DNA from: Candidatus Poribacteria bacterium
GTDB taxonomy: Bacteria > Poribacteria > WGA-4E > WGA-3G
Direction of reading: 5' to 3'
DNA length: 64,000 bases
Assembly (NCBI GenBank): GCA_963663765.2
Contig: CAXXUA010000005.1
Coordinates: forward strand, 768,001 to 832,000
Positions 2,192 to 47,400 of the stretch are shown piece by piece. The notes under the pieces were generated by a model. That model made no database searches and had not been told where the DNA came from. It saw only the letters and a list, made by a program, of their open reading frames with translations. The position numbers and the translations under genes were made by a program. How positions within the stretch are numbered: position 1 is the first letter of the stretch; every line of letters begins with the position of its first letter.

Positions 2192-2500
2192 CGATGTTAT
2201 GCGTGGGTTAGATAGAATTACAAATTCATTTATTAATCTTCATTTAGTTTCTGTCCGCATCTGCACAAACTAAATGTTTGATGCTCAAAATGTCCAAATA
2301 ATTTTATGTTTTACTATAATCGGGGTTGAAAACCCCTCCCACAAGAGGTCAAAATCCTTAAATTGACGCTTATGGGTTTCGCATACGCTCTACCCGGGGA
2401 ATGCCAATAAGGCATTCATACCGTTGATTTGGACCTACGATATAAACTTTAAGTAACACCCATTAAATGATAATTCTTAAAACTGAATAACCCTGTCCGT

Positions 2501-2994
2501 GGGGTGTGTAAAGATTTTGCACAGAGGTACAAACATTTGTTCTCTTTAGTCCCGTAGGGACGCAATGTTTATAGAAAGACGTTATCACCCCTCTCTTGAG
2601 TTCCGTAGGAACGACATAAAAGGTTAAACATATCGTCCCTACGGGAATAAAAAAGACGTGAGGATATGTATTTCTATAAACATTGCGTCCCTACGGGACT
2701 GAAGCGTATGGTTGATATTAACAATATTTCCTTATATTGACACCTAATGAAGTTTGACAATCAATCGGTAGTTGAATACGTAGGGGTTGGGTTCCCCAAC
2801 CCGTTTGGTTTTTAAGTTTGCGTAGATCGGGCGTGGCAACCACGCCCCTACGAATACACAAAATACACAACTTGAACGTCAAAACTCATTAGGGCTCTGT
2901 GCCCCGCATTCTCTCATTTAATCAGTTGGGGCGGGCACAGAGTCCCGCCCTACAATGAAGAATGAGTAGTTTGTGCAAAAATTTTACACACCCC
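2501..2994. mobile_element. MITE with TIR GGGGTGTGTAAA(G/A)(A/T)TTTTGCACA carrying several REP families and a nested MITE (~2744-2892)
   Basis: Inverted ends at 2501-2523 and 2972-2994; internal GTCCCGTAGGGAC, GTAGGGGTTGGG and GCCCTAC palindromes. Confidence 0.75.
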
Positions 2995-9134: not shown

Positions 9135-10225
9135 CAGGACTTACGCAGTCTCAAAGATTATTGATGGATTTGAGAGTTGATATCGCATATAATCATCCAA
9201 TAAACTTTGTTTAAGTTCATAAATTGTTTTGCCAAGTTTACGCGCAACACGTTTCAAACAGACCCATATTTGAAAACAACAGGCAATATGATTTCTTTGG
9301 GCACGCAACTTGCGACATTGACATTTGCCAATACCCGTGACTTGTTTGATCTCACGATGGAGTTGTTCAATCTTCCAACGCATACGACATTCTTGGTGTG
9401 CCGCATCCGCATCCGATTGAGATAAATCGTTTGTCACAATATATTCCGTGCGCCCGGTAGAGGAGGCTATCCGGAACAACTTGACTTGATACCCTTTTGG
9501 AAACTTCTTGATGTGCACGCTTTTCCCTTGCCGGATTTCTGTCCGGGTCCAAGATAGGTCTTGGACTTGTTGGTGCGGTTGCTCGCCATCCGTATCGTTT
9601 ACAAGACGATTTCGTTTCAGGGGCACGTAGTAAATCTTAGAAAGTTTTTCAATCGCTTTCATAACTTGCATGGAGGCATACCAAGTATCCATTAGCACCG
9701 TCCGAAACGGTATCTGTTTTTTAGAGTAAGCGTTGTGCAACATTTCCAGTAAATGGTCTATTTTGGTTTTACCATCATGATCTATGTCATAAATACGGTA
9801 ATCAATAATCCAATACTCTTCTGTCTTTGGATTGACATAGATACACGTCACAATACCAATGCCTTTAACGACTTTTTTGTCGCTACCACTCCACTGAGAA
9901 CGGAGGACCTCAATCTCTTTCGCATAGAGTTTAGGTAGCACAACATCGTCAAAAACAATGTAGCCATCATCATCAAACTCAATGTCGTTTTTGACCGAGT
10001 TCCAAAGTTCATTCGCGGGGATGTTTTCACCGCTCAGAAACCGATTGATTTGATCGTGGCTCCACTTATCAGTATGGTCTGCCATATAGGTTTGTGTAAA
10101 GTTTGTAAAACTTGATAACAAAAATTGACAATAATCTGAATATAAACTTTGTTTCTTTTCGGAAAGTGTAAATGTAATCATAATGGAATAGTATAGCACA
10201 AATCTATTATAGTGCGTAAGTCCTG
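9135..10225 (-). mobile_element. IS701-like insertion sequence
   Basis: TIR CAGGACTTACGCA at both ends, 5-bp TSD TTCCT. Confidence 0.9.
9141..10181 (-). CDS. IS701-like DDE transposase
   Basis: SHDQINRFL, IVFDDVV, VLMDTWY, RWKIEQLHREIKQ; stop lies inside the TIR. Confidence 0.9.
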   Translation of the reverse strand: MITFTLSEKKQSLYSDYCQFLLSSFTNFTQTYMADHTDKWSHDQINRFLSGENIPANELWNSVKNDIEFDDDGYIVFDDVVLPKLYAKEIEVLRSQWSGSDKKVVKGIGIVTCIYVNPKTEEYWIIDYRIYDIDHDGKTKIDHLLEMLHNAYSKKQIPFRTVLMDTWYASMQVMKAIEKLSKIYYVPLKRNRLVNDTDGEQPHQQVQDLSWTRTEIRQGKSVHIKKFPKGYQVKLFRIASSTGRTEYIVTNDLSQSDADAAHQECRMRWKIEQLHREIKQVTGIGKCQCRKLRAQRNHIACCFQIWVCLKRVARKLGKTIYELKQSLLDDYMRYQLSNPSIIFETA

Positions 10226-43091: not shown

Positions 43092-44210
43092 CTATTGTAG
43101 TTTTGCTTTTAGTTCTGTGAGTTCTCTGTCAATTGATTCGTCATCTGCATACTTCTCAAATTCGCGTTGTAAGTTTATGTCCTTGAATTCAATATCTACT
43201 TCGGATGCAGCCTTTGCTAAGGCAGCAGCCTCAGTTACGTTTTGCCCCATTTTCTTGAGTATTTCAAAAGCTTTATTATCACGGAGTTCTGTCAATGTTT
43301 GTTGTAGATGTTCTTGGGCATCCACATTTCTGTGTTTGGCTATTACAACGTCCCTTTCTCTCTGTGTTTGCTGTGTTTTTTGTTGTAAGGCATCAAGTAA
43401 CGTTGTGAGATGTTCTACAGTCTGTTTCTGTTCCTCCCACTGCTGTTTGTATTGGGTTGCAAGTTGTTGGTATTCATTTCGTTGTGCGAGGTCTTCCCGT
43501 GCCAAGTCTTCTCGTTCAGCTTTCAGTGCAATGAGTGCGCGTTCTTCACATTTTTTGGCTTGTGCAACAGCACCATCGTGAGCATTTTGAAACTGTTTTT
43601 CTATCCCAATAGAAGCATCTACCTTTTGCTTCGCTTCTGAAAACCGATTTGTGATTTCCAGGATAACATCTTCTAATACCTTTTCAAGGTCCTTTTCTTC
43701 GTTTTCTGCTTCACGTTCAACTTCTATATCAGACACAATTTCTACAATTGGTGAATCTAATTGTACTACAACCGTTTTCGCGAGCTTATCTCCCATTCGT
43801 TGCCTTACTTTTCCAGATAGAAATAACCAGTCAATAGGTTGAAATATACCTGAAAAACGTCGCACGAAAGCGTCCCATAAGTTTGCTGGTTTTCCATCTT
43901 TCAATCGGACAATTTGTAGAGATAAGAGCCTTTTTCCAAACCCACCCCCTTTTATGACACCGTCCATACAAAATATGCCAAAGAACCACAAGACAACAGA
44001 TAATAGAATCATAGATCTTAATGTTAGTTGATTTGCATCATAGATGTCCAGAAAGAAAAATTTTTCAAGAACCCAAATTTCCAAGTATCCTCCAAGAAAC
44101 ACAATACATTGGAGGAAAACACAGAGAACTATGTCCAGCAAAAACGCGCAGAACCGCTTCCATCGAGATGCTAATTTAAACTTTTCCCCTATGATCTTTA
44201 CAAAAGACAT
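43092..44210 (-). CDS. RDD-PspA/IM30 fusion protein (paralog)
   Basis: RFCAFLLD..GKRLLSL..QRMGDKLAKTVVV, then PspA helices ending IDRELTELKAKL. Confidence 0.85.
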   Translation of the reverse strand: MSFVKIIGEKFKLASRWKRFCAFLLDIVLCVFLQCIVFLGGYLEIWVLEKFFFLDIYDANQLTLRSMILLSVVLWFFGIFCMDGVIKGGGFGKRLLSLQIVRLKDGKPANLWDAFVRRFSGIFQPIDWLFLSGKVRQRMGDKLAKTVVVQLDSPIVEIVSDIEVEREAENEEKDLEKVLEDVILEITNRFSEAKQKVDASIGIEKQFQNAHDGAVAQAKKCEERALIALKAEREDLAREDLAQRNEYQQLATQYKQQWEEQKQTVEHLTTLLDALQQKTQQTQRERDVVIAKHRNVDAQEHLQQTLTELRDNKAFEILKKMGQNVTEAAALAKAASEVDIEFKDINLQREFEKYADDESIDRELTELKAKLQ

Positions 44211-44436
44211 TCTTACAATTCCTCTATAGCGTATCTCATAAATGCAATTTTGTCCAAATTCATCAAATCACGCGTCTGGTAAATCGGGGTTTCTAACCTC
44301 GATTGTTTGAGCCAAAACCTGCAAATCGGGGTTAGAAACACCTCCAACAACTCTAATAGTAAACGTTTCAACAATAGGTCACATCACTAAATTGACACCC
44401 GGGGAATGCTATAGAGAATTCAGACCTTTGATTAAT

Positions 44437-45100
44437 GGGTAAAACTATGCAAAATCCATAGGCGTCAATTTAAGCGACAAATCCCGCCACACATTGTAGG
44501 GCGGGGTCTCTGTGCCCCGCCATGTATTCAAAAAGGAAACAATGGGCGGGCACAGAGACCCGGGGAATGCCTAAATGGCATTCATACCGTTGATTTCTTG
44601 ATTTGGTCCCTACAATCAAGATGACAACGTTGGTTGTGCTAAACTGAACAATACCTTGAAATAAATCCCTAAATTGACGCCTATGGGTATAACTATGCAA
44701 AACCTATAGGTGTCAACTTAAGGATATTAACCTCTTGTGGGAGGGGTTTTCAACCCCGACAGAAGCCAAACGCGCTTCTGACGTTGATTTGGATTTATTA
44801 GGGCATTTCCGCTCAAATCGGGGTTAAAAACCCCTCCCACAAGAGAAAATGCAAACAATATTTTCTTAAGTTGACACCTATAGGGTATAACTATGCAAAA
44901 CCCATAGGTGTCAACTTAAGGATATTAACCTCTTGTGGGAGGGGTTTTCAACCCCGTCAGAAGCCAAACGCGCTTCTGACGTTGATTTGGATTTATTAGG
45001 GCATTTCCGCTCAAATCGGGGTTAAAAACCCCTCCCACAAGAGAAAATGCAAACAATATTTTCTTAAGTTGACACCTATGGGTATAACTATGCAAAACCC
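44437..45100. mobile_element. Three ATAGG(T/C)GTCAA-TIR MITEs separated by four 21-bp direct repeats
   Basis: Repeats at 44437, 44685, 44883, 45080; inserts 44458-44684, 44706-44881, 44904-45079. Confidence 0.85.
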
Positions 45101-45192
45101 AACCTACGAAAAGTCTTTCCTACATCAAACTATTACACATATCTCTTAATAATAGAGCCAGTAAGAATGAAAAAGATAGCCAAATTACGTGG

Positions 45193-46257
45193 TTACAATG
45201 TGGGGACTGTTACCTCCACTTCACGTCCATCAGATTCAGAGGAATCAATGACTCCCTGAATGATGACGTTAGTTAGCAGGACACCGTAAGGATCAATCGG
45301 TGAGGGTTTGCCTTCTCTAACAGCATCAATAAACGCACTATCTTCCTCGTGAAACACATTTACCGACTTAAATTCCGTGTATGTTTCATCATGGATCTCA
45401 CCGTTCTTGTCACCATAGACACGTACACCATTCTGAGGACCGCGCACTTCACCGACTCCGACGCGTAAACCTGCTTTCTTACCGAGAAAAATAGTACCAC
45501 CAAGGGAATCCATATTCATACACCAACATGTCTTGAAAACCATGCGTGCACCGTTGTCAAATACCACCCAACCGACACCGAAATCTTCTACCTCTGTTTC
45601 TCTGAGTGCGGGATTCCAATTGTTGTGTAGACTTAAGTAGTTTGAGGTAATGCCTGAGACAGCAACAGGTTTGGGGTGTTCCATCAGATAGAGTGCAGTA
45701 TCCAATGCGTAGACACCGATGTCTGCGGACGCGCCTAAACCGGCTGTCGCTTTACGTATGAAACTGCCACCAGGATTGCCGCGACGTCTGTCTGCTACAG
45801 TCTCAACGTAATAGATGTCACCCAGTGTACCAGCGTCTACAATCTCTTTCGCCTTGATGACTTGGGAGGAATAGCGAAGTTTTAATCCAATCATGAGTAT
45901 TTTGTCGTTTTCCACGGATGCACGCCACATTGCAGCTGCTGCGTCCAACGTTGCTTCCATGGGTTTTTCGCAGAAGACGTGTTTGCCCGCGTTGAGTGCA
46001 GCAACGGTTGGAGCAGAATGTACACCTGTCGGGGTGCATACGTAGACCGCTTCAATCTCATCCATTTTGAGCATTTCGTTATAATCGGTGAATGTATTTT
46101 TGATTCCCCATCTTTCTTTTGCGCGTTCTAAGTTACCCGATACCAAGTCTGCAGCTGCGATAATTTCCGCGCCTTCTATGTTAGCAAGCGTTCCGCAATG
46201 TGACTGTGCAATGCCACCTGCCCCAATTAAACCTAATTTGACTGTTCTCATAGCCAT
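45193..46257 (-). CDS. Gfo/Idh/MocA family oxidoreductase
   Basis: IGAGGIA, CTPTGVH, GKHVFCEKP. Confidence 0.95.
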   Translation of the reverse strand: MAMRTVKLGLIGAGGIAQSHCGTLANIEGAEIIAAADLVSGNLERAKERWGIKNTFTDYNEMLKMDEIEAVYVCTPTGVHSAPTVAALNAGKHVFCEKPMEATLDAAAAMWRASVENDKILMIGLKLRYSSQVIKAKEIVDAGTLGDIYYVETVADRRRGNPGGSFIRKATAGLGASADIGVYALDTALYLMEHPKPVAVSGITSNYLSLHNNWNPALRETEVEDFGVGWVVFDNGARMVFKTCWCMNMDSLGGTIFLGKKAGLRVGVGEVRGPQNGVRVYGDKNGEIHDETYTEFKSVNVFHEEDSAFIDAVREGKPSPIDPYGVLLTNVIIQGVIDSSESDGREVEVTVPTL

Positions 46258-46396
46258 CTCCTCGTTACAGATATATTTTATTGATTTTATCCTTTTTCAT
46301 TTTCATAGTCAAGTTAATTTATGGTGCGGGGTGTGTAATGTTTTGGCACAAACTGCTCATTCTCCATGGTAGGGCGGGGTCTCTGTGCCCCGCCGC

Positions 46397-47071
46397 ATAG
46401 GTGTCAACTTAGCGATTCATATTATTGTTGGAGGAAAATCTTGAAATCACGATTTTCTCACTCAAGGTAGACGTGCTTTGTAAGCGCACCCCCCCAACTG
46501 CACTCCCTCGCACTCACCCGCACTCACCTGCAGGCGTGCTTTGTAAGCGCACCAAGCACTCACCCGCACTCACCCACACTCCCCTGCAGGCGTGCTTTGT
46601 AAGCGCACCCCGAACTCACCCGCACTCAACCGCAGGCGTGCTTTGTAAGCGCACCCCTCAACTGCAGGCGTGCTTTGTAAGCGCACCCAACACTCACCCG
46701 CACTCAACTGCAGACGTGCTTTGTAAGCGCACCCCTCAACTGCAGGCGTGCTTTGTAAGCGCACCCAACACTCACCCGCACTCAACTGCAGACGTGCTTT
46801 GTAAGCGCACTCCTCAACTGCAGGCGTGCTTTGTAAGCGCGCCTGCACTCACCCGCACCCCCCAACTGCAGGCGTGCTTTGTAAGCGCACCTACCAACTG
46901 CACTCCCCTGCAGGCGTGCTTTGTAAGCGCGCCAAGCACTCACCCGCACTCCCCTGCAGGCGTGCTTTGTAAGCGCACCGTTGCCAATCCTGTGTTTATC
47001 GGCGCACTTACAAAGCACACCTACCGGGATGGGGTATTTAGCACTTGACTTTTTCTTAAGTTGACACCTAA
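46397..47071. mobile_element. ATAGGTGTCAACTT-TIR MITE containing a REP tandem array
   Basis: 21-bp imperfect TSD at 46376-46396 and 47072-47092; GCAGGCGTGCTTTGTAAGCGC repeats 46467-47023. Confidence 0.8.
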
Positions 47072-47175
47072 GGGGTCTCTGTGTCCCGTCACAACTGATT
47101 AAATAAGAGATTACGGGAACAGCACCCATAGGTGTTGTCAACATAAGGAAATATTGTTAATATCAACCATACTCT

Positions 47176-47400
47176 TCAGTCCCGACAAATGCCATACGCG
47201 CATTTGGCGTTGATTTGGTAGCGACGATATGTTTATAGAAAACGAGTTCACACGCCTTTTTAGTCCCGACAAATGCCATACGCGCATTTGGCGTTGATTT
47301 GGTAGGGACGATATGTTTATTCTTCTATGCCGTTCCTACGGAACTCAAGAGGGGTAGATAACATTTTTCTATAAACATATCGTCCCTACGGGACTAAATG
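47176..47400. repeat. Cluster of AGTCCCGTAGGGAC REPs, two carrying type-2 micro-insertions
   Basis: Insertions at 47184-47217 and 47268-47301; empty copy at 47382-47397. Confidence 0.85.

Follow-up and report, generated by a model that had tools for sequence, protein, structure and literature searches.

Miniature derivatives of an IS4-type transposon in Candidatus Poribacteria lie between direct repeats of 19-20 bp and form arrays with the tops of REP palindromes

Introduction

The length of the target duplication is taken as a constant of each family of DDE transposases, reflecting the fixed spacing of the two active sites on the target. [quoted passage not shown] Three members form an array in a 64,000-nucleotide stretch of contig CAXXUA010000005.1 (positions 768,001 to 832,000; hereafter the window, which corresponds to G000:C5:768001-832000, G000 being the window's own 6.35-Mb assembly), where they alternate with four copies of a 21-bp sequence, the top of a repetitive extragenic palindromic (REP) hairpin. 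A preliminary description, based on the letters of the window, had attributed this array to a DDE transposase that recognizes REP structure and makes an unusually long stagger, and had likened the outcome to the repeat duplication carried out by Cas1 and casposases.

The closest described systems belong to the IS4 family of insertion sequences (ISs). In the available part of De Palmenaer et al. (2008, PMC2266710), the target duplications of this family measure 7-13 bp in all subgroups, with a norm of about one helical turn, the end consensus of the IS231 subgroup is given as CAT-------AA--TAA (Table 1), and IS4 groups with an incomplete YREK motif are moved to separate families. According to the same text, the IS4-related transposases of IS1634 and IS1549 produce duplications far longer than 10 bp, their repeats ranging between copies from 8 to 514 bp without a target rule. 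The IS231 elements of the Bacillus cereus group duplicate 10-12 bp; for IS231A the available portion of PMC2577343 (Table 1) lists an 11-bp duplication at GGGNNNNNCCC, and that of PMC6199540 describes non-autonomous derivatives (MIC231) moved in trans. All copies of ISRm22, another member of the IS4 family, are located at the symmetry axis of REP palindromes, and hybrid flanks were ascribed to recombination between copies (Tobes & Pareja 2006, PMC1525189, in the part accessible to us). The direct repeat of ISRm22 is 6 bp and that of other REP-targeting ISs 0-3 bp, and none of those covered in that part duplicates the whole hairpin top or builds arrays.

Set beside these systems, the Poribacteria element is probably an IS231-like cut-and-paste element with a Tn5-type fold and with miniatures mobilized in trans, which targets REPs as ISRm22 does and is set apart as a variant by its long duplication. 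The inserts of the window are very probably MITEs of an IS4-type IS whose DDE transposase chooses inverted half-sites and duplicates the 19-20 bp between the cuts, the arrays having grown by re-insertion and amplification.

Results and Discussion

The 21-mer GGGTATAACTATGCAAAACCC was detected four times in the window against 0.00 expected (100 shuffles), and the terminal inverted repeat (TIR) ATAGGYGTCAAYTTA, with up to two mismatches, ten times against 0.61 expected. The TIR matches include four +/- pairs, three of which bound the inserts that separate the 21-mers (Table 1). The architecture given in the preliminary description was confirmed, as insert 1 (227 bp) is only 55.5% identical to insert 2, whereas inserts 2 and 3 (176 bp each) share 99.4% identity; the same is true of the fourth pair, a longer element flanked by the duplicated top of a different REP. 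The additional right TIR placed before the first repeat is present, but it lacks its last bases and a mini-element of 36 nt intervenes. Of the two further right TIRs said to be followed by REP arms, that near 2375 is directly succeeded by a REP top, whereas 32 nt separate the one near 2745 from the start of the REP. The array has no left REP arm (GTAGGTT) at its left boundary; the sole arm present is the right one, AACCTAC. The REP of the array is a low-copy one, with four copies in the genome, all within the array (BLAST). The Rfam search of positions 43900-47400 returned nothing relevant, and seven of the nine corresponding loci fetched from relatives have a short intergenic region without REP or MITE, which makes them unusable as an empty site.

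In the whole of G000 the TIR pattern (up to two mismatches) occurs 600 times and forms 189 +/- pairs less than 3 kb apart, most of which are 138-142 bp long. Counted from ATAGG, flush direct repeats of 20-23 bp border 117 of the 189 pairs (20 bp in 1, 21 bp in 60, 22 bp in 54 and 23 bp in 2 pairs), and in 44 of the 117 they are perfect. When left flanks were paired with the right flanks of other copies as a control, 3.8 such repeats per 189 were obtained. Moreover, a scan blind to the TIR, accepting any element with inverted ends and an exact direct repeat of 17-30 bp, uncovered 36 cases, of which 32 were the ATAGGYGTCAAYTTA-ended family. The duplicated sequences are diverse: in 115 copies the interior of the repeats fixed the register, and these copies contain 92 distinct strings in 38 clusters, which implies that the 21-mer belongs to the target and not to the element. 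The family displays the features by which MITEs are known, namely short paired copies (189), a target duplication, and TIRs that are those of a 1449-bp IS described below; inside the MITEs no transposase-like open reading frame (ORF) was found, one nested foreign IS excepted. A 704-bp element at G000:C3:394019-394722, which has other inverted ends (CAGGACTTACGCA...) and lies between exact direct repeats of 19 bp, may represent a second long-duplication family.

Uninterrupted targets in related genomes contain the duplicated segment once. An IS copy in assembly G072 (locus L019) lies inside a repeat of about 360 bp, and its flanks overlap by exactly 20 bp in at least seven uninterrupted paralogous copies of that repeat in assembly G073. 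Base by base, the empty copy contains TGGATGGGGCAACAGACACCCC once, and the filled copy has this stretch on both sides of the element. In addition, when G000 MITEs in low-copy targets were compared with sister species, orthologous empty sites with one copy of the segment and no element were identified at C6:165984 (versus G016), C6:218965 (versus G016 and G017) and C4:574639 (versus G003). The flank search for a second IS copy, L025, in G072 retrieved one flank only. Neither short duplications at other copies nor a 21-mer fixed in the element, two of the outcomes that the preliminary description had named as speaking against it, were encountered: most MITEs in G000 and 26 of 33 anchored IS copies (19-22 bp, see below) carry long repeats of differing sequence, and empty sites hold one copy.

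In G000, 53 of the 189 paired elements are organized into 22 clusters of neighbours one repeat apart (16 doublets, 3 triplets and 3 quadruplets), and 136 are solitary. In 11 of the 26 neighbour pairs the two members are clearly distinct, with 55-90% identity and unequal lengths, an indication that they inserted independently into a regenerated target. The other 15 pairs are at least 97% identical, compared with 2.7% of random pairs of the same class, and for these tandem amplification or local re-insertion is indicated. The array in the window exhibits both patterns, insert 1 being different and inserts 2 and 3 near-twins, although both terminal bases of the latter two differ (T..A versus C..G). 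Judging from these sequences, many arrays have probably grown by tandem amplification or local re-insertion and not by independent hits. The near-identity of neighbours, including inserts 2 and 3, could also be expected if there were no target duplication at all and the element together with its 21-mer were a composite repeat, whose arrays and flanks arose by tandem duplication or recombination alone. We regard this as very improbable, given the solitary elements, the 117 pairs flanked by repeats that come in 92 different sequences, and the neighbours that differ from each other, and it is contradicted by the one-copy empty sites.

The preliminary description had called for an autonomous IS with these TIRs, and such an IS was found in related genomes. 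Pairs of +/- TIRs 1453 bp apart in two genomes turned out to be 1449-bp IS copies with the same ends (L011 and L012), containing a single ORF of 438 amino acids (P0001). Autonomous copies are 1444-1459 bp long; they are present in relatives and none is found in G000. P0001 matched the Pfam family DDE_Tnp_1 (3.5e-25) and the NCBIfam model NF033592, 'IS4 family transposase', with 204 bits at a cut-off of 115. Residues D119, D191, E324, R320 and K331 are invariant among 12 homologues, and the DDE spacings of 71 and 132 in a single ORF agree with the D(60-110)D(100-150)E arrangement of the IS4 family. An AlphaFold model of P0001 (predicted local distance difference test score 74) was used for a Foldseek search of the PDB, in which the top five matches were Tn5 transposase (best 1muh, E 1.5e-9, probability 1.00, TM score 0.44); the sequence-profile search of P0001 gave no PDB relative. 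P0001 is thus an IS4-family DDE transposase with a predicted Tn5-like fold.

A search of G000 for homologues of P0001 found none, and none of its 37 matches to NF033592 reached the cut-off of 115. The best of these (75 bits) was rejected as a partner of the MITEs, since its IS has ACTATAGTTTGGACAG ends and a 5-bp duplication. A 1805-bp copy at C4:1180655 was likewise dismissed as an autonomous element, for it is a MITE into which an unrelated IS50/Tn5-like IS is nested; the nested IS has separate ends and duplicates 8-9 bp. TIR pairs spaced as far as 40 kb apart in G000 whose flanks match were only coincidences between REP copies, and clustering of the inward sequences of 222 unpaired TIRs led to a 68-bp tandem array of MITE right halves and to no IS. 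With about 190 paired MITEs and no cognate transposase gene, G000 holds the orphans of an IS that is still present in sister species.

The presence of a transposase gene within the repeat-flanked unit in relatives also bears on a view in which the roles are reversed, with the short hairpin tops as the mobile units, inserting between pre-existing sequences with inverted ends. Elhai et al. in 2008 reportedly held a small mobile hairpin view of this kind for cyanobacteria, and G000 does contain a nested element of about 36 nt, with 587 matches, that splits other repeats. However, hairpin tops occur in full REP context without the element, unique sequences are duplicated as well, and the orthologous empty sites, which have the top and lack the element, contradict such an origin, to which we give next to no credence.

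Because most targets begin with GG and end with CC, the edge of the element is ambiguous. We fixed the register by the interior of the repeats before examining the end positions. At position +/-1, C/G beside ATAGG/CCTAT was accompanied by a different base in the distal copy in 41 cases, and the same non-consensus base stood on both sides in 9; position +/-2 behaved as target (22 versus 7). In the filled and empty pair of L019, the G that follows CCTAT is not the T of the target. Statistically, these results suggest that the element reads CATAGG...CCTATG, and with this edge the duplication becomes two bases shorter than when counted from ATAGG. The true duplication in G000 would then be 19 bp in 63 copies, 20 bp in 50 and 21 bp in 2, that is, 19-20 bp in 113 of 115, in line with the earlier estimate of 19-21 bp depending on the TIR edge. 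Short-topped palindromes in relatives have duplications of 17-18 bp and full-length IS copies elsewhere of 17-20 bp, the overall range being 17-21 bp. The end consensus derived from the 189 pairs and the edge test is CATAGGYGTCAAYTTAAG, in which positions 1-3 read CAT, 11-12 AA and 15-17 TAA, and CATAGGTGTCAACTTAAG matches the end consensus of the IS231 subgroup position by position.

An extended end pattern was present in 15 of 18 other genomes of the window's genus and in 0 of 42 genomes from ten other genera sampled from the same order. Our scan of species representatives yielded 62 loci, 45 of which (L014-L058) are in Candidatus Poribacteria records and have 100-45% protein identity; the loci examined among these 45 have the same ends and are 1443-1465 bp long, except for one of 1578 bp. 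Among 33 correctly anchored full-length IS copies from Poribacteria records, 26 are bordered by flush repeats of 19-22 bp (from ATAGG), which the other 7 lack. In a subfamily with 47% identity, ten copies were anchored on an internal repeat and stand outside the 33; several of them, when checked, showed 18-22 bp. Outside the phylum, long duplications were seen in the nearest plasmid-borne relatives, from Herpetosiphon (31.5% identity, 19 bp) and Candidatus Chlorohelix (29.5%, 20 bp), counted from the CAT end. The more distant relatives from Firmicutes and Bacteroidota have short duplications of about 10-11 bp: 11 bp each in a Clostridium metagenome-assembled genome, Parageobacillus and Bacillus sp., one of them being GGGTTAGACCC (GGG-N5-CCC type), and about 10 bp in Terrimonas. 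For L060, L063-L066, L078, L091, L093 and L094 the TIR and duplication were undefined. In a quick maximum-likelihood tree, the long-duplication clade (support of 85 in the Shimodaira-Hasegawa-like approximate likelihood-ratio test, SH-aLRT) stands apart from the short-duplication clade (SH-aLRT 90). Identity to the Bacillus IS4-family/ISBth4 proteins is 23-29%; the tree places the element in a sister clade, no named IS231 protein being among its rows.

With the CATAGG edge, GTNG^GG(G/T) is found on either side of the target, on the right as the reverse complement, so that the target has the form G^GG..CC^C with 13-16 bases between the ends. Of the 115 targets, 89 have at least six copies in the genome (counted by BLAST) and are tops of GTAG-type palindromes, whose flanks read GTAGG.../...CCTAC. 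The other 26 are low-copy, nine of them occurring just as the two repeat copies, and some low-copy targets are non-palindromic or without hairpin potential. G000 contains six matches to Y1_Tnp, the domain of proteins resembling REP-associated tyrosine transposases (RAYT), four of them above 116 bits; this is consistent with the many GTAG-tagged REP families used as targets. The four strong RAYT-like genes (152-169 amino acids) are located at C5:688634, C3:287718, C5:550867 and C5:353059. Within a REP cluster the length of the duplication stays the same, and from one cluster to another it changes (20 bp in 17 of 17 copies, 19 bp in 12 of 13 and 19 bp in 9 of 9), which argues that the cuts follow the half-sites and are not made at one fixed distance.

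The same constancy within REP clusters could arise if the REP were captured in extruded form (a hairpin or a cruciform), or as a single-stranded hairpin, and cut at a fixed position of the stem, with the hairpin top setting the length of the stagger. This would account for the tolerance of 17-21 bp, and the shorter REP tops of relatives, with 17/18 bp and the same G^GG/CC^C cut positions in the stem, fit it too, but these cases come from other IS subfamilies in other genomes, so that enzyme and target are confounded. The REP-like nature of 89 of the 115 targets is also as expected for such capture. However, 19-20 bp are duplicated even at low-copy targets whose hairpin potential is small or nil (that at C4:351053 folds at -0.3 kcal/mol), L048 is inserted in an AT-rich non-palindrome, and for non-palindromic targets hairpin capture is unneeded. 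When the 115 targets were reconstructed, only 11 showed pairing at 10 or more of the 14 symmetric positions around the duplication ends, and a dyad-centring test was weak (best shift 0 in 45 of 115 targets), being blurred by array neighbours and asymmetric REP arms. We therefore consider a structure-set stagger rather unlikely. Of the recognition of REP structure put forward in the preliminary description, the preference for REPs stands, whereas a symmetric half-site, GTNG^GG, suffices in place of structure, as the 26 low-copy targets, some non-palindromic, illustrate.

In the mechanism that we favour, the inserts are non-autonomous derivatives of the 1444-1459 bp IS, and its transposase would act as a dimer by cut-and-paste, as is usual for the family, probably on captured double-stranded target DNA. 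The target is chosen as GTNG^GG...CC^CNAC, two inverted half-sites with the cuts 19-20 bp apart in G000 and 17-18 bp apart on the shorter REPs of relatives, and repair of the staggered joints would duplicate the stretch between the cuts. Most such sites are tops of GTAG-type REP hairpins. Because the duplicated stretch holds both half-site cores, every insertion regenerates two targets; later insertion into either copy would give rise to repeat-insert-repeat arrays, and tandem amplification of a MITE plus its repeat, or local re-insertion, would add to them. We infer the order of events in the window array along the same lines. The central claim of the preliminary description, a DDE transposase with an unusually long stagger, held up against the ends, the duplications and their control, the empty sites, the family and fold of the transposase and the separation of long from short duplications in the phylogeny.

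Casposons duplicate 14-15 bp and CRISPR adaptation a whole repeat, in both cases a longer, partly palindromic target. The Poribacteria element resembles them in that a longer, partly palindromic target is duplicated and arrays can grow. It differs in that its enzyme has a DDE/RNase H fold and is not Cas1, and in that the inserts are copies of the transposon itself; neither a leader nor cas genes nor polarity were seen, no search aimed at them having been made. A casposase-like Cas1 enzyme or a site-specific integrase as the maker of the long duplication has this likeness of partly palindromic repeats and growing arrays in its favour, a likeness that is formal only. The autonomous element, however, encodes just the DDE transposase of Tn5 fold, and an attachment site carried by the element is excluded by the flanking repeats, which are not the same at each site; we find such an enzyme extremely unlikely. 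The Cas1 comparison is valid as a formal analogy and not for the enzyme.

Several observations weigh against the reading of the inserts as MITEs of an IS4-type element with half-site choice. The evidence for it is all comparative, transposition itself not having been observed. Among the 189 pairs, 72 are without a clean repeat, and many of these are flanked by the tops of two different REPs, which would fit recombination between copies as argued for ISRm22. The edge of the element was derived statistically, and nine cases favour the ATAGG edge with a duplication of 21-22 bp. The T..A terminal pair was found in 13 copies across unrelated subfamilies, compared with about 3 expected if the ends were independent, and the nearest relatives of T..A elements are often C..G elements at 98-99% identity; other terminal pairs are C..A (13 times) and T..G (5 times). 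A hairpin-opening ('P-nucleotide') origin of the T..A termini was considered and rejected, as it does not suit the C..G majority, and no model here accounts for these termini. The spacing ranges from 17 to 21 bp, which sits awkwardly with a transposase dimer that is rigid and acts on B-form DNA. The tree is the product of a quick search with SH-aLRT values of 85 and 90, and two of its rows are broken genes. Finally, the YREK tyrosine is absent: P0001 has V at position 317, a position that varies among homologues, so the Y(2)R(3)E(6)K signature is incomplete.

With IS231/MIC231 the Poribacteria element shares the one-ORF DDE transposase, the end consensus, the inverted pair of a G-rich and a C-rich half in the target and the non-autonomous derivatives. 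It departs from IS231 in its duplication, which is 19-20 bp (17-21 bp overall) and thus about one helical turn longer, and in its transposase, which groups with Chloroflexota elements in a sister clade outside the Firmicutes clade and has no YREK tyrosine. Neither the one-turn duplication of 7-13 bp typical of the IS4 family nor the 10-12 bp duplication at GGG-N5-CCC of the IS231 subgroup was observed, yet the same G/C-ended symmetry is kept, and the clade looks as if it used the target rule of IS231A with half-sites about one turn further apart. Unlike ISRm22, with which it shares the REP targets and hybrid flanks, it duplicates a whole hairpin top and builds arrays, and unlike IS1634 and IS1549 it combines a long duplication with a tight length and a defined target. 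No description of such long duplications in the IS4 family was found in the literature searched; ISfinder lay outside this search and may list them for the Herpetosiphon element.

The clade keeps the fold of the family, its end signature and a symmetric G/C-ended target, yet its cuts are 19-20 bp apart, with a tolerance of 17-21 bp. It thereby gives access to the question of how target DNA is gripped by Tn5-like transpososomes, for which the 11-bp sister elements are the natural comparison. It also presents a target-regenerating transposon and REP palindromes that co-amplify into arrays, which bears on how repeat-spacer arrangements could originate without Cas1. It is conceivable, though on balance improbable, that the Tn5-like clade of Poribacteria and Chloroflexota shifted its target capture by one helical turn, perhaps by reading the target in hairpin or cruciform form, in which case the stagger (17-21 bp) would be set by the target, with arrays self-built by regenerated targets. 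If this were true, the clade would be a DDE counterpart of the repeat duplication that underlies the growth of CRISPR arrays, and a natural case of a REP family and a transposon family amplifying each other.

Additional features of the window and the genome

Table 1. Positions of the array, of related elements and of solo inverted ends in the window
Feature	Position	Strand	Remarks
Degenerate right inverted end	44387..44399	+	CTAAATTGACACC; of a lost or truncated fourth element, without terminal TAT(G)
Degenerate mini-element copy, ~36 nt	44401..44436	+	GGGGAATGC...TTGATT family, unrelated; between the old TIR and the first 21-mer
21-mer copy 0	44437..44457	+	REP top, 2 mismatches; its final C (44457) is taken as terminal base of the element
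Insert 1	44458..44684	+	227-bp MITE, ATAGGCGTCAATTTA...TAAATTGACGCCTAT; terminal C/G at 44457 and 44685; REP and mini-element inside
21-mer copy 1	44685..44705	+	1 mismatch
Insert 2	44706..44881	+	176-bp MITE; terminal bases T..A at 44705 and 44882
21-mer copy 2	44883..44903	+	Exact
Insert 3	44904..45079	+	176-bp MITE; terminal bases C..G at 44903 and 45080
21-mer copy 3, then REP right arm	45080..45107	+	Exact; arm AACCTAC at 45101-45107
Left copy of duplicated target	46376..46396	+	Top of another REP, GGGGTCTCTGTGCCCCGCCGC
Member of the same TIR family	46397..47071	+	675 bp
Right copy of duplicated target	47072..47092	+	GGGGTCTCTGTGTCCCGTCAC; 21 bp, 3 mismatches to the left copy
Solo right TIR, then REP top	2359..2395	+	TIR itself 2359-2373, 1 mismatch; REP top GGGTTTCGCATACGCTCTACCC; followed by mini-element (2396-2431) and REP arm GACCTAC
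Solo right TIR	2733..2747	+	2 mismatches; longer-end subfamily; REP starts 32 nt further on

The 675-bp MITE contains a minisatellite at 46500-46979, with units around GCAGGCGTGCTTTGTAAGCGCACC (Tandem Repeats Finder periods 32-78, up to 5.9 copies), and similar minisatellites fill other long members of the family. Just to the right of this element, at 47128-47150, there is a left-end-like sequence, CATAGGTGT-TG-TCAACATAAGG, with a 2-base insertion and no obvious partner. The tandem array of MITE right halves mentioned above is situated at G000:C10:12246-13300 and has a period of 68 bp (46 bp in some units) and at least a dozen units.

The mini-element of about 36-40 nt, GGGGAATGCC-N4-GGCATTCATACCGTTGATTTGG, gave its 587 matches in G000 with an 18-nt core and up to two mismatches. 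In the window it is present at 2009, 2396-2431, 12779, 44401-44436 (degenerate), 44562-44600 and 37226 (- strand). It sits at precise points inside other repeats, splitting REPs and adjoining junctions of TIR and REP, and looks like a very small nested mobile element.

The window also carries, at 9279-9779 on the - strand, a DDE_Tnp_1-type gene of another IS family, with a 413-amino-acid open frame and 49 bits to NF033592; this family has about ten copies in G000. The IS50/Tn5-like IS, which encodes a 470-amino-acid transposase, is found at C4:1180989-1182296, C6:430133-431441, C6:355626-356934 and C5:1130470-1131778, with ends CTT(A/T)CTTTTACCCATAAGTTT, duplications of 8-9 bp and a frameshift in one copy. 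Three of its four copies are inserted in a CCCACAAG(A)GG motif that also occurs inside the MITE, so that one transposon family here targets another.

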